A stretch of DNA of 8,455 nucleotides from a virus (Duplodnaviria > Heunggongvirae > Uroviricota > Caudoviricetes), in IMG/VR virus record IMGVR_UViG_2648501730_000017, one strand, 5' to 3'. Below the pieces are notes generated by a model. The model worked only from the letters and a program-made list of their open reading frames with translations, made no database searches and was not told the DNA's origin. A program made the position numbers and the translations under genes. Below are positions 1-8,455 of this stretch, piece after piece (the first letter of the stretch is position 1; every line of letters starts with the position of its first letter).

Positions 1-1545
1 TCACAGATAAAACACTCTCCAGGAAACCCGGGGCGGTTCAACCATATATTTGAGAGCACTTATCGCCTGCTGGGCGGATATTACTTTCATTAAAGGATAG
101 TGTTTAAAAACAATGCCATTCATAAAATAGATATCACAGGTTTTATTATCCGTATTAATTATGATTTTTTCGAATGTTTTATAGGCAAGTGTACGGCATA
201 ACTCTCGTCCATTTTTACTGGTTAAGTCAATAGCATAAAAATCACTGAATGAATTTACACCTTTACTCTTCAAAGTTTTCAATGATACCGAAGCCCTTCT
301 TAATTCCTTATCTAATAGTCTTATTTTCTCTGCTATAGCGGTAACTTCAGGCGCGACAGACAATGCAACGATTAAATTATTAATTTTCATCTGAAGCTCA
401 ATAATTTTTAACTCTAAAGTTTCATTAGCATCTTTCTTGTTTTCAACTGGTTGAATTTTGCTACAATTAAAAAGCAATTCATTAATGATATTATAATCAA
501 CCAAATCTCTTTTTATTGATGGCCTGTCACATCGATGTAATCTTCTCATCGGACAAACATAATAGCCATGCAAACTTCCAGATACCGCATGAACAATCAT
601 GGTATTACCACAAGCCTCACACTTCATAACTGTTCGAAGTAGATTTATTAGCATAGGATTCTTGCTACTATTGCTAATACCAAAAGGTGCCAACCGAATT
701 TCCTGTACAGCGTAAAACAAATCATCTGATATGACTCTGGGATAATAGCCAGCGATTTCACTTATCCCTTTCCCTCTTGCACGATATGAAGGTACGCATA
801 TACCTATCAGAGCTTTATTCGCTAATAATTTTTCAATTACAGAAGGTCCCCATGCACTTTCTTTTCCTGAGAAATTCTTTACAGCATGATCATTTAAATA
901 CTTGGCTATTGCATTCAATGAGCGCCTTTCCATCCTGAGTTTAAAAATTAGCTCAATAGTTTTCACCCTGTCGGGGTCTGGAACAAAAGCCGTTCTTTTG
1001 TCATCTAAGGAGAGCCATCTCGGACAAGACGCCGTCATAATCGTACCTGATTCCAGTGCATCCTGCCGTTTTTTCTTCCATGATAATTTAACCCGACTTG
1101 ACTTTATCTCGCTTTCTTCATTTGCCCTTTGTGCTATAAGTATGGCTTTTATTAATGAATATGGCTCATTCAAAGAGTCAATGTTATAGACTGTATTGTC
1201 GCAAAGAGTTATAACATCAATACCGTGATTCAAAATCAATTTCAGACGTTCAATCGCTTCACCGACTTTTTCTCTTGAAAGTCTGTCCAGACTTTCAACT
1301 AACAATGTAGTTCCTGGCAATATATAACCATGCTCTATAGCATCTAAAAATTCCGAAAAAGCTCCTGATTGTGCATGCTTTCCTTTGAATGCACTTAATC
1401 CTAAATCTTCATATGTTATGGTATCAAGATAATAATCACTATTTACCTTTAACCATTCAGCAATAAGTCTTCTCTGTCGGTTTAATGAGTCACCAGACAT
1501 CTGACCTGGTGATGAAAATCGCATATATGCTATGGCTTTTTTCAT
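1..1545 (-). CDS. ybcK: Large serine recombinase (resolvase-type catalytic domain, recombinase domain, Cys-rich zinc ribbon); complete 514 aa, stop codon at positions 1-3
   Basis: Supplied translation starts MKKAIAYMRFSSPGQ...SLNRQRR, a serine-recombinase catalytic motif; 514 aa length and the Cys cluster CEACGN...YYVCPMRRLHRCDRP fit large serine recombinases. Position next to emrE matches the emrE-ybcK arrangement of DLP12 as I recall it. Gene is visibly AT-rich relative to the lambda-like genes. Confidence 0.8.
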   Translation of the reverse strand: MKKAIAYMRFSSPGQMSGDSLNRQRRLIAEWLKVNSDYYLDTITYEDLGLSAFKGKHAQSGAFSEFLDAIEHGYILPGTTLLVESLDRLSREKVGEAIERLKLILNHGIDVITLCDNTVYNIDSLNEPYSLIKAILIAQRANEESEIKSSRVKLSWKKKRQDALESGTIMTASCPRWLSLDDKRTAFVPDPDRVKTIELIFKLRMERRSLNAIAKYLNDHAVKNFSGKESAWGPSVIEKLLANKALIGICVPSYRARGKGISEIAGYYPRVISDDLFYAVQEIRLAPFGISNSSKNPMLINLLRTVMKCEACGNTMIVHAVSGSLHGYYVCPMRRLHRCDRPSIKRDLVDYNIINELLFNCSKIQPVENKKDANETLELKIIELQMKINNLIVALSVAPEVTAIAEKIRLLDKELRRASVSLKTLKSKGVNSFSDFYAIDLTSKNGRELCRTLAYKTFEKIIINTDNKTCDIYFMNGIVFKHYPLMKVISAQQAISALKYMVEPPRVSWRVFYL

Positions 1546-1730
1546 GGTGACACCTGCTAACGTATGCTTTTATAAACCTTAGTGGTGGGATATAATTTTT
1601 GTTTAATTTTTATTTAAAAAGACAATTAAGGTCACATTATCTTGAATATACAACAATAATCGTATTGCAATTTTCTTACGCCATAATCTTGAAAGCACAA
1701 AAGAACACATAAAAAAAATAAAGACATTAA

Positions 1731-1771
1731 CAAAAAGCATAAAACGAGGCTCATATAAATATAAGAGCCTC
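1731..1771 (-). terminator. Putative intrinsic terminator about 30 nt downstream of emrE
   Basis: Inverted repeat GAGGCTC (1746-1752) / GAGCCTC (1765-1771) with a 12-nt loop; on the minus strand the hairpin is followed by GTTTTATGCTTTTTG (T-rich). Confidence 0.5.
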
Positions 1772-1802
1772 CATATTTTAGTCGTTTAGAAACAAATTAT
1801 TT

Positions 1803-2135
1803 TTAATGTGGTGTGCTTCGTGACAATAGATTAATAACCAACACACCGGCACAAATTAACATCATGCCTATAATGGCTGGCAGGTCCAGCCGTTGGCCGA
1901 AAAGTCCCCATGACAGTAAGCTAATCAGGACAATACCGACTCCTGACCAGATAGCATAAGCAATCCCTGTAGGAATATAAGCCAGCGTCTGAGCTAATAA
2001 CCAGAATGATGCACAATAACAAATAATTGTACCAACAGATGGCCATAACCGTGTAAAACCTTCTGAAAACTTCATTAAGGTTGTACCAATGACCTCTGCA
2101 AGTATTGCACCACCAAGATAAATATAAGGGTTCAT
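1803..2135 (-). CDS. emrE: SMR-family multidrug efflux transporter EmrE (110 aa)
   Basis: Translation from the internal Met reads MNPYIYLGGAILAEVIGTTLMKFSEGF...LLSRSTPH, matching E. coli EmrE as recalled, including the conserved membrane Glu in helix 1. AGGAAAG ribosome-binding site 8-14 nt upstream of this ATG; the 128-aa ORF in the track is an upstream extension. Confidence 0.9.
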   Translation of the reverse strand: MNPYIYLGGAILAEVIGTTLMKFSEGFTRLWPSVGTIICYCASFWLLAQTLAYIPTGIAYAIWSGVGIVLISLLSWGLFGQRLDLPAIIGMMLICAGVLVINLLSRSTPH

Positions 2136-2202
2136 AGCATATTCTTTCCTGTTCAAACTGGAGAGAATTGTACTACAGTTTGAACTCAACTCACCTGTTT
2201 CA

Positions 2203-4128: not shown

Positions 4129-4214
4129 AATTCCTCCCGCAATGAGTGTGTTACGATTTGCACCTGAAAGTCGGTTCTGTTCCAGCAGACCGGCTTTCGC
4201 CATTTCTGAACCTG

Positions 4215-4754
4215 TCATATCGCCCCCAGCATGGTAGTAACCATCGCCATCAATGGACCAGCCAGATCTGGGTCCACACGAAACATCGACACAATACCTT
4301 CACTAATTTCCTTCAGTTTCTGGTGGCGTGGTGCGTTGAGAATGACAGCCTGTTTTGCCTCACTGAGTTCCTTTTCCATTTCAGCCAACCTAGCCATGAA
4401 GCTATCCTGCTCAACCAGGTAACCGCGATATTCCAGCGGTAGTACCGCCAGAATTGCCGGGGTCAGTTCACGCACGTTATTTCGGTATTTTTCAGAATCG
4501 AATTTGTTATCGAGGAAGCGGAACAGCTTCTGGCGTGCACGGCTGACATCATCAGGGAAATCGATGGTGCCGCCGCCCTGCTCCCGATACTCATTCACAA
4601 TGAGTGTGGCAACGACATCCTGATTATCTACAGCCGACCAGGCGCGGACGGCATCACGGATTTTTTCGTGGCCTGGCACCTGTTTTGTTTGAGAACGATT
4701 TATCACCGCAGTCGGGCTAAATCCGCTAGTCTGTTGGTATGTAAGTGGTTGCAT
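4215..4754 (-). CDS. YdaT-like protein (about 179 aa) in the cII position; probable CII functional analogue
   Basis: Sits between the cro-like gene and O where lambda has cII, but is about twice the length of lambda CII. GGAG ribosome-binding site 7 nt upstream of the ATG. Family assignment is from recalled Rac / CP-933P ydaS-ydaT arrangements, not from a search. Confidence 0.5.
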   Translation of the reverse strand: MQPLTYQQTSGFSPTAVINRSQTKQVPGHEKIRDAVRAWSAVDNQDVVATLIVNEYREQGGGTIDFPDDVSRARQKLFRFLDNKFDSEKYRNNVRELTPAILAVLPLEYRGYLVEQDSFMARLAEMEKELSEAKQAVILNAPRHQKLKEISEGIVSMFRVDPDLAGPLMAMVTTMLGAI

Positions 4755-4798
4755 AATTGACTCCTTTAGTTTGAATTGACTGTTAAGTTGATTGCTTA

Positions 4799-4811
4799 TT
4801 GTTAAAGAGCG
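4799..4811 (-). promoter_or_regulatory. boxA-like element in the nutR position, just downstream of the cro-like stop
   Basis: Minus-strand sequence CGCTCTTTAACAATAAGCAATCA contains GCTCTTTAACAAT, matching the E. coli rrn boxA (TGCTCTTTAACAATTTATCA, as recalled) at 13 consecutive positions; placement matches lambda nutR. Confidence 0.5.
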
Positions 4812-4823
4812 TGAAATGGAAAT

Positions 4824-5054
4824 TTAAGCTGCGTTCTTTTCGGTGTGTGGAAACAACTTCGGAAGATCCGGGCGAATCTGGTATGCCTTCACTACTCCAC
4901 CAGTAGCCGTAACAATGCTGCCGACATGTTCAGGGGATACCTTTGCTTTGTTGTGAAGCCACTTATAGACGGCCTGCTGTGAAACTTCGCAAGCAGCGCC
5001 CAGTTTCTTTTGTGAACCAACGATATTGATCGCTGTTTTGATAGCTGGGTTCAT
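4824..5054 (-). CDS. Cro-like small HTH regulator (76 aa), first gene of the rightward early operon
   Basis: Small protein transcribed divergently from the cI-like repressor; GGAGG ribosome-binding site 5 nt upstream of the ATG; the segment QKKLGAACEVSQQAVYKWL is helix-turn-helix-like. Confidence 0.6.
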   Translation of the reverse strand: MNPAIKTAINIVGSQKKLGAACEVSQQAVYKWLHNKAKVSPEHVGSIVTATGGVVKAYQIRPDLPKLFPHTEKNAA

Positions 5055-5081
5055 AACAACCTCCGTGGTTAATTTGAATCA

Positions 5082-5110
5082 AGATTAAAACTATGGTTGT
5101 TTTTAGTCAA
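5082..5110 (-). promoter_or_regulatory. pR-like promoter: -35 TTGACT, 17-nt spacer, -10 TAATCT, with a 17-bp operator filling the spacer
   Basis: Reverse complement of 5082-5110 reads TTGACT-AAAAACAACCATAGTTT-TAATCT, about 25 nt upstream of the cro-like ATG. Confidence 0.5.
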
Positions 5111-5150
5111 CAACCATTTTCGTTTGATGGAATAAAACCTTGGTTGTACA
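5087..5150. promoter_or_regulatory. OR-like tripartite operator region between the cro-like and cI-like genes
   Basis: Three related sites: 5087-5103 AAAACTATGGTTGTTTT (strongest, in the pR spacer), 5107-5123 TCAACAACCATTTTCGT (weaker), 5134-5150 AAAACCTTGGTTGTACA (next to the cI-like start). Shared half-site AAAACAAC / GTTGTTTT. Confidence 0.5.
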
Positions 5151-5158
5151 TTTGGACT

Positions 5159-5848
5159 ATGAAAACAACACTCTCAGAAAGACTTAAAGAAGCCAGATTA
5201 GCGCGAGGCCTTACACAAAAGGCGCTTGGGGATTTGGTCGGGGTTAGCCAGGCTGCTATTCAGAAAATCGAAACAGGGAAAGCTAATCAAACAACTAAAA
5301 TCGTGGAGATCGCGAACGCTTTGGGTGTGCGCGCAGAATGGTTATCTTCTGGCGTTGGAAATATGTCAGACAGTACAGTGCAACCAATACAATCAACTGT
5401 CAGCCATTCCAAATACTTCAAGATTGACGTTCTTGATATAGAAGTCAGTGCTGGGCCGGGAGTCATCAACCGTGAGTTTGTAGAAGTTCTACGCTCGGTT
5501 GAGTACTCGTTTGACGATGCTCGTCACATGTTCGATGGTAGGAAGGCGGAAAATATCCGCATCATTAACGTGCGTGGTGACAGCATGTCAGGAACGATCG
5601 AACCAGGTGATCTGCTGTTCGTTGATATCACAGTTAAATCTTTCGACGGTGATGGTATCTATGCGTTTCTGTACGACGACACAGCCCATGTAAAGCGCCT
5701 GCAAATGATGAAGGATAAGCTGCTGGTCATCTCTGATAACAAAAGCTACTCACCGTGGGACCCGATCGAGAAAGACGAGATGAACCGGGTGTTCATCTTC
5801 GGTAAGGTTATTGGGAGCATGCCGCAGACATATAGGAAGCATGGGTAG
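5159..5848 (+). CDS. cI-like prophage repressor (229 aa): N-terminal HTH-XRE domain plus C-terminal S24 LexA-like autopeptidase domain
   Basis: From the internal Met: MKTTLSERLKEARLARGLTQKALGDLVGVSQAAIQKIETGK (HTH), then GDSMSGTIEPGDLLFVD with a downstream HVKRL Lys, the Ser/Lys dyad of S24 peptidases. No Shine-Dalgarno before 5159, and a weak TTGATG / TACATT promoter would start transcription near the ATG (leaderless, as lambda cI from pRM). The 5093 start would overlap operator 1. Confidence 0.8.
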   Translation: MKTTLSERLKEARLARGLTQKALGDLVGVSQAAIQKIETGKANQTTKIVEIANALGVRAEWLSSGVGNMSDSTVQPIQSTVSHSKYFKIDVLDIEVSAGPGVINREFVEVLRSVEYSFDDARHMFDGRKAENIRIINVRGDSMSGTIEPGDLLFVDITVKSFDGDGIYAFLYDDTAHVKRLQMMKDKLLVISDNKSYSPWDPIEKDEMNRVFIFGKVIGSMPQTYRKHG

Positions 5849-5969
5849 TACCAATTAAAAATTATCAACTGGGCATTGTGCTCATTCAGTAAAGAACTAA
5901 TTCCTATCTTTGCTCTAGGTAGTAATATTAAGCCACCGCAATAATATCTTTACCTAACGGCGTAAGAAT

Positions 5970-5996
5970 CCCGGTCACCGTGCCGGGTTTTCTTTT
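5970..5996 (+). terminator. Putative intrinsic terminator about 120 nt downstream of the cI-like gene
   Basis: CCCGG (5970-5974) pairs with CCGGG (5983-5987), followed by TTTTCTTTT. Confidence 0.45.
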
Positions 5997-6091
5997 GCCC
6001 TCCCCTCATCACACACACCGTTAAAAAAACCACCATAACCTCGCTTCAGTTATCGCTATGCGATTCAAGTCACAAAATAAATCCATCCTAA

Positions 6092-6166
6092 ATACAACCA
6101 GTTATATCTAAAACAACCAATAAAACAACTTTTGTTGTTGACGATAAAACAACTATGGTTTTAAAT
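6092..6166 (+). promoter_or_regulatory. OL/pL-like operator-promoter cluster driving the kil-gam-bet operon
   Basis: Repeated AAAACAAC motifs (ACAACCA 6094-6100; AAAACAACCA 6110-6119; AAAACAAC-TTTT-GTTGTTG 6122-6140). Promoter TTGACG (6138-6143), 17-nt spacer, TTAAAT (6161-6166); the spacer carries AAAACAACTATGGTTTT (6146-6162), near-identical to the operator in the pR spacer. Confidence 0.5.
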
Positions 6167-6443
6167 AAGTTCATCGCAACAACACAACGATACGGCAACT
6201 ACCTGATTCACCGTTGCGATGACCGCTTAGATCCGCAGTTTGAATTTCAGCAGGCTTCGGGGAGTGCGAGGGGTGAAACGGACGCGTGAACGTCGGTGTG
6301 ACCAGCTGAAATTAACTCAACATTTCATACCTTAGTCGCTTCAACGAGGCGGCTTAGTTATGACAACCGGCGGCCATCCACCGCCTGAATACGCGCAGAA
6401 GTCTCTATATGTTCAGCAGCCCAGCTTACGGGCAGGAGTTTTT

Positions 6444-6650
6444 ATGGTTCATCAACATTATGGAACGCAGACCGTTAATCGAGGTGCGGTCATGCCAGGA
6501 ATGCTGGTCAAACACAAAGATGGTACCTGGACTGCATCAGCTAATTTACGCGGACGGCTTTATCTGCATCGCGGCATCGAGCGCACTTATACCCGTGATT
6601 TGCTCGTGGAAGTTTTTCTCGACGGACGCGGTAACGGCCTGAATCACTAA
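6444..6650 (+). CDS. Small protein (68 aa from this start) in the kil position; possibly a Kil-like host-killing / division-inhibitor protein, identity unverified
   Basis: AGGAG ribosome-binding site 5 nt upstream of ATG 6444; alternative in-frame starts at 6492 (GAGGTG upstream) and 6501. The ORF ends 76 nt before gam, where lambda has kil. I cannot reliably recall a homologue. Confidence 0.3.
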
Positions 6651-6725
6651 TCCCCTTTCCTGTTTTCCTAATCAGCCTGGCATTTCGCGGGCGATATTTT
6701 CACAGCCATTTTCAGGAGGTCAGCC

Positions 6726-7022
6726 ATGAACGCTTATTACATTCAGGATCGTCTTGAGGCTCAGAGCTGGGCGCGTCACTACCAGCAGATCGCCCGTGAA
6801 GAGAAAGAGGCAGAACTGGCAGACGACATGGAAAAAGGCCTGCCCCAGCACCTGTTTGAATCGCTATGCATCGATCATTTGCAACGCCACGGGGCCAGCA
6901 AAAAAGCCATTACCCGTGCGTTTGATGAAGATGTTGAGTTTCAGGAGCGCATGGCAGAACACATCCAGTACATGGTTGAAACCATTGCTCACCACCAGGT
7001 TGATATTGATTCAGAGGTATAA
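6726..7022 (+). CDS. gam: Gam (RecBCD nuclease inhibitor), 98-aa short form
   Basis: [94 protein letters not shown] matches the C-terminal 98 residues of lambda Gam as recalled. AGGAGG ribosome-binding site upstream. No in-frame ATG upstream before a TAA at 6669-6671, so only the short form can be made. Confidence 0.85.
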
Positions 7023-7027
7023 AACGG

Positions 7028-8455
7028 ATGAGTACAGCACTCGCAACGCTGGCAGGGAAGCTGGCTGAACGTGTCGGCATGGATTCTGTCGACCCACAGG
7101 AACTGATCACCACTCTTCGCCAGACGGCATTTAAAGGTGATGCCAGCGATGCGCAGTTCATCGCATTGCTGATCGTCGCCAACCAGTACGGCCTTAATCC
7201 GTGGACGAAAGAAATTTACGCCTTCCCTGATAAGCAGAACGGCATTGTTCCGGTGGTGGGCGTTGATGGCTGGTCCCGCATCATCAATGAAAACCAGCAG
7301 TTTGATGGCATGAACTTTGAGCAGGACAATGAATCCTGTACATGCCGGATTTACCGCAAGGACCGTAATCATCCGATCTGCGTTACCGAATGGATGGAGT
7401 TGCACGACAAGCGAAAAGCAGAACTCTGGCGAGTAGAAAAGCTAGGGGATTTACCTGATGTCACTTTTGAAGAGGCCTGCCTAAGATGGCTTGAGGAAAA
7501 AGCTGATAAAAAATCTCTCGATTCAGATAAAAGCCGGATTGAGTTCTGGCTTGAACATTTTGAGGGTATAAGGCTTAAAGATATCTCGGAGGCAAAGATT
7601 TACTCTGCTGTAAGCAGAATGCATAACAGAAAGACGAAAGAAATATGGAAACAGAAAGTTCAGGCCGCCATCAGGAAAGGTAAAGAACCGCCTGTTTATG
7701 AACCAAAGCCAGTATCAACTCAGACAAAGGCAAAGCATCTTGCCATGATAAAGGCCATTCTCCGTGCTGCAGAACGCGACTGGAAGTGGCTGGAAAAAGC
7801 GCCTGTCATCAAGATACCAGCGGTCAGAAACAAGCGAGTCAGATGGCTGGAAAAGGAGGAAGCAAAACGCCTTATTGATGAGTGCCCCGAACCACTGAAA
7901 TCTGTCGTCAAGTTTGCGCTGGCAACTGGTCTGAGAAAGTCGAACATCATAAATCTGGAATGGCAACAAATCGACATGCAGCGACGAGTTGCCTGGGTGA
8001 ATCCAGAAGAGAGCAAATCAAACCGCGCCATTGGTGTGGCGCTGAACGATACCGCCTGTAAAGTGTTGCGTGATCAAATAGGCAAGCATCACAAATGGGT
8101 GTTTGTACATACCAAGGCGGCTAAGCGAGCAGATGGAACATCAACGCCTGCGGTCAGGAAGATGCGCATCGACAGCAAGACATCATGGCTATCAGCTTGT
8201 CGTCGTGCAGGAATTGAAGATTTCCGTTTCCATGACCTCAGACACACCTGGGCAAGCTGGCTGATTCAGTCAGGCGTCCCATTATCAGTGCTTCAGGAAA
8301 TGGGCGGATGGGAGTCCATAGAAATGGTTCGTAGGTATGCTCACCTTGCGCCTAATCATTTGACAGAGCATGCGAGGAAAATAGACGACATTTTTGGTGA
8401 TAATGTCCCAAATATGTCCCACTCTGGAATTATGGAGGATATAAAGAAGGCGTAA
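7028..8455 (+). CDS. In-frame fusion: Bet (lambda Red-beta) residues 1-123 joined to a tyrosine integrase (IntD / P21-family like) lacking roughly its first 35 residues; probable deletion product that removed the bet 3' end, exo, xis and the int 5' end
   Basis: Residues 1-123 ([122 protein letters not shown]) match lambda Bet as recalled. From about nt 7397 the protein switches to integrase sequence (ELHDK.KAE.WRV.KLG..PD.TFE.AC.RWLEEKA.KKSLD.DKSRI.FWL..F...), with the catalytic Arg in TGLRKSN, HDLRHTW and the Tyr in MVRRYAHL. Gam stop to bet start geometry (aggtataaaacggATG) is as in lambda. Confidence 0.8.

Follow-up and report, generated by a model that had tools for sequence, protein, structure and literature searches.

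Gene organization of the prophage segment

We studied the immunity region of a lambdoid prophage carried on a stretch of viral DNA of 8,455 nucleotides (IMG/VR record IMGVR_UViG_2648501730_000017), hereafter called the window. Gene calls combined with Pfam, NCBIfam and PHROG searches showed that the window is a lambdoid prophage segment with the gene order ybcK-like recombinase, emrE, ren, P, O, a YdaT-family gene, a cro-like gene of the YdaS family, a repressor gene with HTH_3 and S24 domains, a hairpin, a KilR-like gene, gam and bet::int, the last being a fused open reading frame (ORF). The repressor and cro-like genes are divergent and have 104 bp between them, which is the layout of lambdoid immunity regions, and early genes flank the pair on both sides: the YdaT-family gene, O, P and ren on one, kil, gam and bet on the other (Table 1). 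Positions 5056-6166 very likely form a prophage immunity region built like those of lambda and 434, in which a cI-like repressor would act on 14-bp dyads placed in the early promoters pR and pL. A preliminary description, made from the letters of this DNA alone, had proposed a cro-like gene, a divergent cI-like partner and repeated operators overlapping two outward early promoters, and this was borne out. The computed evidence comprises the enrichment of the sites, their positional conservation, the covariation of recognition helices with operators, the promoter hexamers, the catalytic residues of the repressor and near-identity to viable phages.

The region (1.6 kb) is 99.8-99.9% identical to the plaque-forming phages PhiR34_1 and Turner. 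Three substitutions relative to PhiR34_1 were found across window positions 4200-7398, all of them outside cI, cro, the promoter hexamers and the operator half-sites; the sole difference in the control regions is a G at 6157 where PhiR34_1 has an A, at the centre of OL1 (TATG replaces TATA). At least 80% of the segment 5040-6200 was found in 1049 of 5426 complete Escherichia coli genomes. The prophage in the window is defective and cannot excise and grow as a phage because a loss of 2.67 kb relative to PhiR34_1 has fused bet to int; missing are exo, four small ORFs, the remainder of bet and the beginning of int. This deletion would fit an alternative in which the operators are genuine and the switch is a decaying relic without present function. 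We consider that alternative improbable, as the substitutions within these 3.2 kb spare the key elements and the exact cI protein is present on at least 1000 contigs; moreover, pL would serve a Kil-type FtsZ inhibitor and pR would serve O and P, so that loss of repression should presumably be harmful, which would favour retention of the switch.

Table 1. Coordinates of genes, putative operators and predicted promoters in and around the immunity region (window numbering)
Feature	Position	Strand	Sequence or elements	Remarks
YdaT-family gene	4215-4754	-		Position of lambda cII; Pfam YdaT_toxin, E=8.5e-30; PHROG CII-like activator, E=4e-67
cro-like gene	4824-5054	-	Recognition helix VSQQAVYKW	76 aa; YdaS family, helix-turn-helix
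Possible auxiliary operator-like 14-mer	5056-5069		ACAACCTCCGTGGT	One mismatch; overlaps cro Shine-Dalgarno; 31 bp from OR1
Predicted pR	5082-5110	-	-35 TTGACT (5110..5105), 17-nt spacer, -10 TAATCT (5087..5082)	
OR1	5087-5100		ACAACCATAGTTTT (minus-strand reading)	Perfect match to A[AC]AAC-N4-GTT[GT]T
OR2	5110-5123		ACAACCATTTTCGT	Left half consensus, right half weak
Predicted pRM	5124-5152	+	-35 TTGATG (5124-5129), 17-nt spacer, -10 TACATT (5147-5152)	
OR3	5134-5147		AAAACCTTGGTTGT	Perfect 14-mer match
cI-like repressor gene	5159-5848	+	Recognition helix VSQAAIQKIE	229 aa; 434-like HTH_3 N-terminal domain and S24 autoprotease
Terminator-like hairpin	5970-5997	+	G+C-rich CCCGGTCACCGTGCCGGG, then T run TTTTCTTTTG	After cI
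'OL3' region	6094-6118	+	ACAACC half-sites at 6094 and 6113	Neither with dyad partner
OL2	6125-6138		ACAACTTTTGTTGT	Perfect dyad; also fits 434 consensus ACAA-N6-TTGT
Predicted pL	6138-6166	+	-35 TTGACG (6138-6143), 17-nt spacer, -10 TTAAAT (6161-6166)	
OL1	6149-6162		ACAACTATGGTTTT	In pL spacer, overlaps pL -10
KilR-like FtsZ inhibitor gene	6444-6650	+		First gene of pL operon; 96-aa ORF frame 6360-6650, probable start Met29
bet::int fusion ORF	7028-8455			475 aa; junction 7396-7398 (3-nt overlap); first 123 or so codons of lambda-type bet, then IntD-like integrase

Putative operator sites

The motif AAAACAAC, described earlier as clustered in both control regions, is indeed found there: it has six copies in the 8,455 bases against 0.57 expected, a tenfold enrichment, and none of 200 shuffles reached six. 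Five of the copies lie at 5096-5103 (minus strand), 5162, 6110, 6122 and 6146. The two 17-mers built on it, AAAACAACCATAGTTTT at 5087-5103 (minus strand) and AAAACAACTATGGTTTT at 6146-6162 (plus strand), are exact. The strict 14-mer A[AC]AAC-N4-GTT[GT]T has four perfect copies in the window, only at 5087, 5134, 6125 and 6149, where 0.04 would be expected. When two mismatches were allowed the 14-mer count was near chance (25 against 17.6 expected), and therefore only the strict sites are informative.

The unit of recognition is probably a 14-bp dyad, ACAAC-N4-GTT(G/T)T, and not the 17-mer AAAAC-N7-GTTTT. Column statistics for the relatives showed half-sites constant over exactly 5+5 positions, 4 bp apart, with free variation of the central 4 bp at OR3 and YATR at OR1 and OL1. 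The positions of the sites are conserved as well: OR1 lies at a constant -72 from the cI ATG in 112 related loci, OR3 at a constant -25 in 121 loci, and a pair of sites 24 bp apart was found downstream of cI in 84 loci. OR2 columns, set by position alone, read ACAAC-YATW-TTCGT in 57-65 unique relatives, and the spacing of the OR sites is 23-24 bp. Upstream of the start of OL2, an ACAAC half-site lies at 31 bp in 52 and at 12 bp in 33 of the 84 unique OL regions.

The preliminary description had taken as operator the 17-bp imperfect palindrome, exactly filling the spacers of both promoters. Its two exact copies with symmetric 5+5 arms and the enrichment of AAAACAAC would agree with this proposal, which we nevertheless regard as highly improbable. 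The AAA preceding ACAAC varies in relatives (ATACAAC, AGACAAC, ATTACAAC), OR3 read in the 17-mer register (TGTACAACCAAGGTTTT) has the 14-bp dyad intact but no left arm, OL2 matches the ACAAC/GTTGT dyad perfectly and the 17-mer less well, the invariance has the 5+5 extent given above, and the homologous 434 repressor uses a 14-bp site. Both -35 elements are present as described and the sequences between -35 and -10 are correct, but their placement is not identical in the two promoters: O1 starts 4 nt past the -35 in pR and 5 nt past it in pL, with an overlap of 1-2 nt with each -10. The description of three right-hand sites with the weakest nearest cI fits OL, where the third element (6110) is only a half-site. 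The left (OR) cluster, not resolved at that time, also holds three sites, and its weakest-looking one is the middle one, OR2.

Putative promoters and start of the repressor gene

The sites are interlocked with three predicted promoters, whose assignment rests on conservation among unique relatives (57 OR regions, 84 OL regions). OR1 lies inside the pR spacer and shares its last T with the start of the pR -10; OR3 is placed in the same manner inside the pRM spacer, its last T being the first of the pRM -10. The -35 hexamers of pR and pRM stand back to back, with OR2 in the gap between them and its centre at -42.5 from the cI ATG. On the other side of cI, the last T of OL2 is the first T of the pL -35. 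Among relatives, pR has a TTGACT -35 and a TAWTNT -10, with A2 and T6 in 56 of the 57; the pRM -35 begins with TTGA, whose TTG is present directly after OR2 in all 57, and the pRM -10 is TANATT (A2 and T6 in 57/57). For pL, TTGAC is kept at -35 in 83-84 of the 84 and T6 of the -10 in 82. The 17-nt spacers are conserved along with the hexamers. The -10 proposed earlier for pL was thus supported, and that of pR is better read as TAATCT, one nucleotide off the earlier register. Downstream of the predicted pR come cro, the YdaT-family gene, O and P. Transcripts are predicted to begin near 5075 for pR and near 6173 for pL.

The pRM -10 is separated from the cI ATG by only 6 nt in the window (6 nt in 45 relatives, 7 nt in 11). 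Because of this short distance, a leaderless cI mRNA starting at A5159 is predicted from pRM, and no conserved Shine-Dalgarno sequence was found ahead of the cI ATG among the 57 unique OR regions. Public records often start the repressor at ATG 5093 (251 aa), as does the 90% cluster representative; this codon lies within OR1/OR2. We favour the start at 5159 (229 aa) on the basis of the MKTT starts, with which all relatives of cI begin, the alignment with 434 repressor and the pRM geometry.

The 14-mer at 5056-5069 has a counterpart at the same offset (-103) in relatives, with no mismatches in 13 loci; perfect dyads at -103 occur in relatives from Providencia, Morganella, Xenorhabdus and Klebsiella. 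It is a possible auxiliary site, confounded by the conservation of the cro ribosome-binding site.

Distribution of the sites and covariation with the recognition helices

A scan of one genome per species yielded 35 loci encoding relatives of the repressor, in Klebsiella, Kosakonia, Providencia, Morganella, Photorhabdus, Xenorhabdus, Pectobacterium, Brenneria, Erwinia, Pantoea and Serratia, among other genera, and also in a Rhizobiaceae metagenome-assembled genome. Nearly all loci with the helix (V/I)SQAAIQKIE presented the 14-mer at -72 and -25, and many presented the downstream pair 24 bp apart; the exceptions were rdgA-type loci (without the -72 site), one pseudogene fragment and Dichelobacter. 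A census took in 129 loci with the cI helix SQA(A/N)IQK, together about 1 Mb of DNA from related phages; of its 437 perfect 14-mers, 414 were located at OR1 (-72), OR3 (-25), the OL2/OL1 pair or -103. The remainder were 18 OL1 sites accompanied by an imperfect OL2 and about four sites elsewhere. The motif is therefore specific to operators and not an AT-rich repeat spread over the genome, a possibility that the preliminary description had named as fatal to its proposal.

The O2/-35/O1 composite (GTTGTTGAC-N5-6-ACAAC-N4-GTTTT) was found in at least 120 viral contigs, and about half of those listed carried two copies on opposite strands, 1018-3065 bp apart. A SQAAIQK repressor was encoded within the available sequence of 68 of the first 80 contigs examined; the other 12 had pL-type matches with short upstream DNA (less than 1.7 kb in 11 contigs and 2.6 kb in the twelfth), so that their repressor gene may lie beyond it. 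With 1019 bp from the pR composite to the pL composite, the window belongs to the shortest class. Since this distance varies widely among contigs, cargo genes seem to be accommodated between cI and pL; in the Klebsiella phage ST101-KPC2phi6.1 this space is filled by RexA/RexB.

Among phages, the operator type varies in step with the recognition helices of both cI and the YdaS-family Cro. In type A (the window and its relatives), cI has SQAAIQKIE, Cro has (S/T)QQAVYKW or TQAAVQKW, and the operator is A[AC]AAC-N4-GTT[GT]T. Type B (HK639 and PA28) combines SQPAIQKM and SQPAVHKW with ATAAC-N4-GTTAT. Type C (Raoultella L003 and phage 4A7) combines AQPTIWRL and AQPTVWRW with ATACGC...GCGTAT-like repeats; no ACAAC dyads were found at its loci with up to one mismatch, and its C-terminal domain is close to that of the window (about 95% DNA identity in 4A7). 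Between types A and B, the change from A to P at the position of 434 Q29 coincides with a change from C to T at operator position 2, a pairing in agreement with the known contacts of 434 repressor.

These data also bear on the view that ACAAC(C) represents iteron-like or CII-like direct repeats, to which a host factor or a phage protein such as the O initiator or the YdaT-family factor would bind. Three same-strand copies of AAAACAAC at 6110, 6122 and 6146, the conserved unpaired ACAACC half-sites upstream of OL2 and further ACAAC copies at 6179 and 6184 speak for it. We give it very little credit because the inverted GTT(G/T)T exactly 4 bp away is kept at four positions in more than 100 loci, the type of motif covaries with the cI and Cro helices, and the motif persists in Pectobacterium rdgA-rdgB without an adjacent YdaS-type cro and without O or P among the ORFs listed. 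In addition, the published YdaT site, TTGATT-N6-AATCAA (PMC9986795), differs and is not enriched here: the window has no match with up to one mismatch, the count was 10 against 7.9 expected, and the best match in the expected place (TTGATTGCTTATTGTTAA, three mismatches, 4788-4805, between cro and the YdaT-family gene) is at chance level. The YdaT homologue of the window may recognise a different site. As for the inverted repeat at 5093-5117 (ATGGTTGTT...AACAACCAT, 9-bp stem), which a terminator-like scan listed on both strands, its role as a bidirectional terminator or cruciform was rejected as extremely improbable, since the stem consists of the facing inner halves of OR1 and OR2 with only three G-C pairs, would be transcribed from none of the three predicted start points, all of which lie downstream of it, and varies in relatives as operator halves do and not as a compensating stem.

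Repressor and Cro-like proteins

The S24 domain of the repressor covers the full Pfam model (Peptidase_S24, E=1.2e-18). The motifs GDSM (S142) and VKRL (K179) align with UmuD Ser60 and Lys97, and the cleavage pair A98-G99 sits in VSAGPG; the repressor thus appears intact, as had been noted, and with these residues in place the switch is probably SOS-inducible. The N-terminal domain has as its nearest solved relatives the repressor (E=4.5e-9 over 64 residues) and the Cro protein (E=2.7e-7) of phage 434. Q31 of cI aligns with 434 Q28, whereas the equivalents of 434 Q29, S30 and Q33 are A, A and K.

The cro-like product matched Pfam YdaS_toxin (E=4e-17), more weakly P22_Cro, and a PHROG family of transcriptional repressors. 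The YdaS-family gene is followed by the YdaT-family gene, both transcribed away from the repressor, as in early operons of the YdaS/YdaT type.

Proposed operation of the switch

We propose that a repressor dimer would bind the 14-bp dyad A(C/A)AAC-N4-GTT(G/T)T and that the YdaS-family Cro, with its related recognition helix, would bind the same dyads, the OL2/OL1 arrangement on pL repeating that of OR2/OR1. In the lysogen, repressor on O1 and O2 would shut both pR (cro, the YdaT-family cII analogue, O and P) and pL (kil, gam and bet). Transcription from pRM may be stimulated by repressor at OR2 and would cease once OR3 is occupied; lambda cI activates its pRM from a position like that of the OR2 centre, -42.5. 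DNA damage would lead, through RecA activation, to self-cleavage at A98-G99 by S142/K179; pR and pL would then be derepressed, and Cro on OR3 would silence pRM.

Several points weigh against this interpretation. The steps of binding, transcription and cleavage are all deduced from sequence, and activation of pRM from OR2 and looping between OL and OR are suggested by analogy. No promoter was called in a consensus scan of positions 4700-6500, as the -10 hexamers agree with the consensus at just 3-4 of 6 positions; the pL hexamer, moreover, has no A at position 2, where one is usual. For OR1 and OR3, part of the invariance of the half-sites stems from the choice of sites, which allowed no more than one mismatch, and many of the loci compared are close kin. 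OR2 and 'OL3' are poor dyads whose occupancy is conjectural. Homologues from Dichelobacter, at 25% identity, share the helix yet show no clear sites, and more than the helix must therefore determine the operator. Finally, the bet::int deletion means that the switch in the window cannot yield phage. The still-functional, SOS-inducible switch of the preliminary description is plausible, given the near-identity to viable phages, but in this defective prophage induction would proceed without phage yield.

Comparison with known immunity systems

The operators of 434 are 14-bp ACAA-N6-TTGT dyads, and its contact residues are known from crystal structures (PDB 2or1 and 1per). The window shares with 434 the homology of the N-terminal domain, the first helix Gln (Q31, equivalent to 434 Q28), 14-bp dyads with an outer ACAA in at least one half and a variable centre, three OR sites about 23-24 bp apart and an S24-type C-terminal domain. 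It differs in the three helix residues given above, in always having C at operator position 5 and in having AAAAC as one half of OR1, OR3 and OL1, with only OL2 fitting the 434 consensus fully. Also, its Cro is of the YdaS family and not a paralogue of cI as is 434 Cro, and a YdaT-family protein occupies the cII position. Of the base-contact residues Q28, Q29, S30 and Q33 only Q28 is kept, and the window was not classed as imm434; cross-immunity with 434 is unlikely because the helix residues differ. The operator had been called distinctive and of a type unrelated to that of lambda. The second part holds, there being no similarity in sequence to lambda operators; the first must be tempered, as a site with 434 geometry and outer ACAA, paired with a repressor whose N-terminal domain is homologous to 434 cI, is not exotic.

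As in lambda, three OR sites are shared by the divergent pR and pRM, a duplicate set lies at pL, OR2 is at about -42 of pRM, the cI message is leaderless (a prediction here), the repressor is of the S24 type and a terminator follows cI. The lambda operators, in contrast, are 17 bp long, and the N-terminal domain of the window's repressor is of the 434/HTH_3 type.

The gene arrangement resembles that of the prophages CP-933P (PaaR2/YdaS/YdaT) and Rac (RacR/YdaS/YdaT), with a repressor divergent from YdaS, followed by YdaT, intergenic operators, a second set at a pL-like promoter and a leaderless repressor mRNA (predicted in the window). For CP-933P, the leaderless repressor gene and the roles of YdaS as Cro and YdaT as CII have been shown experimentally, and binding of PaaR2 and YdaS by electrophoretic mobility shift assay and footprinting (PMC8630535, PMC9986795). 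The CP-933P operators are, however, 18-bp repeats with the consensus GTTTAGTAA (PMC8630535), and PaaR2 is co-transcribed with a toxin-antitoxin pair, whereas the repressor of the window is of the S24 type and predicted to be cleavable; an S24 domain is not described for PaaR2 in PMC8630535 or PMC9986795, the term being absent from the latter.

HK639 and PA28, a Stx1a-converting phage, have a cI, a YdaS-type cro and 14-bp dyads at equivalent positions, and the N-terminal domain of their cI is 56-58% identical to that of the window. They differ at operator position 2 and in the helices of cI and Cro (type B above), so that they presumably represent a sister specificity and would be heteroimmune.

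A further relative is RdgA of Pectobacterium, which has the HTH_3 and S24 domains, the helix VSQAAIQKIE and a perfect ACAAC-N4-GTTGT at -25 from its ATG. In front of rdgB (Mor family), about 1040-1470 nt after the rdgA start, there is a pL-like composite, AAAACTAAAGATGT-TGACA-N4-ACAACTATAGTTTT-AAAT. RdgA-RdgB is unlike the window in being a chromosomal pair with no adjacent YdaS-type cro, and the identity to cI is about 37%. The circuit constitutes a DNA-damage-inducible control of pectin lyase and carotovoricin; members of the RdgA-type cluster are named 'regulator of pectin lyase production'. RdgA footprints may be found in papers that Liu et al. published in the 1990s. The title of Liu et al. 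1994, cited in PMC13566846, describes RdgA as responding to DNA-damaging agents, which, like the intact S24 residues, suggests RecA-stimulated autocleavage of the window's repressor. No paper on the ACAAC-N4-GTTGT operator was found in the literature searched, which excluded the early RdgA papers; a match to AAAACAAC in PMC8053113 proved to be a primer and not the description of an operator.

The region downstream of pL and other genes of the window

The KilR-like product matched the NCBIfam model PRK11354 'FtsZ inhibitor protein' (E=4e-17, below the curated cut-off) and PHROG 294 'Kil protein' (E=1e-38). In the PhiR34_1 record the ORF annotated at this place is one of 77 aa in a different frame (window 6409-6642), and it matched nothing. 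A perfect 10-bp inverted repeat at 6171-6222 (TCATCGCAAC ... GTTGCGATGA, 32-nt loop) is located at the 5' end of the predicted pL transcript and is followed by a leader of about 220 nt; further ACAAC copies are present at the two positions mentioned above. The leader sequence 6170-6362 folds no more stably than its shuffles (z=-1.1). An Rfam scan of the whole window (E<=1) gave only a chance rliD match and no nut, put or other known RNA past pL, and neither an N gene nor a nut site was recognised downstream of pL; relatives of HK639 are known for RNA-based antitermination. The short stretch 6323-6383, which begins just ahead of the kil-like ORF and runs into it, shows about 85% identity to the phi80 early region (X13065, 355-413) and to several Enterobacter and Klebsiella phages.

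At the other end of the window (1-2189), the emrE gene for multidrug efflux and the ybcK recombinase occupy the same positions as in the viable PhiR34_1 (1-1335 of the compared locus), and are therefore cargo of an active phage lineage. Both genes are known from the DLP12 remnant of K-12.

Biological meaning

The prophage in the window is of a kind very common in E. coli, and its immunity region, although intact, is a lambda-style switch of the ordinary sort that leaves the understanding of such switches unchanged. It appears to represent one of the commonest lambdoid immunity types in E. coli. The 14-bp site would allow prophages to be typed for superinfection immunity by sequence alone, and the annotated start of cI is corrected. 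The series ACAAC, ATAAC and ATACGC, with the matching helices, offers a testable recognition code for HTH domains of the 434 type and one more set of candidate orthogonal repressor/operator pairs. Furthermore, the sites tie an E. coli prophage switch to the RdgA-RdgB damage-response circuit of Pectobacterium.

A wider reading, which we put forward tentatively and consider rather doubtful, is that the pairing of SQAAIQKIE with ACAAC-N4-GTTGT, shared across genera, underlies a network of immunity and cross-talk, that the switch of a defective prophage is addiction-like and that 5056-5069 provides additional control. If this were true, one specificity would be common to prophages of many Enterobacterales genera, about a fifth of the complete E. 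coli genomes and RdgA-RdgB. Resident repressors would exclude or silence incoming phages of the same type, and the Cro or repressor of an infecting phage could switch a virulence and bacteriocin circuit of the host. Intact switches would be kept in defective prophages to hold down the Kil-type FtsZ inhibitor and in-situ O/P replication, and would act like SOS-triggered addiction modules, while the conserved fourth site over the cro ribosome-binding site would add a control layer absent from lambda and 434.

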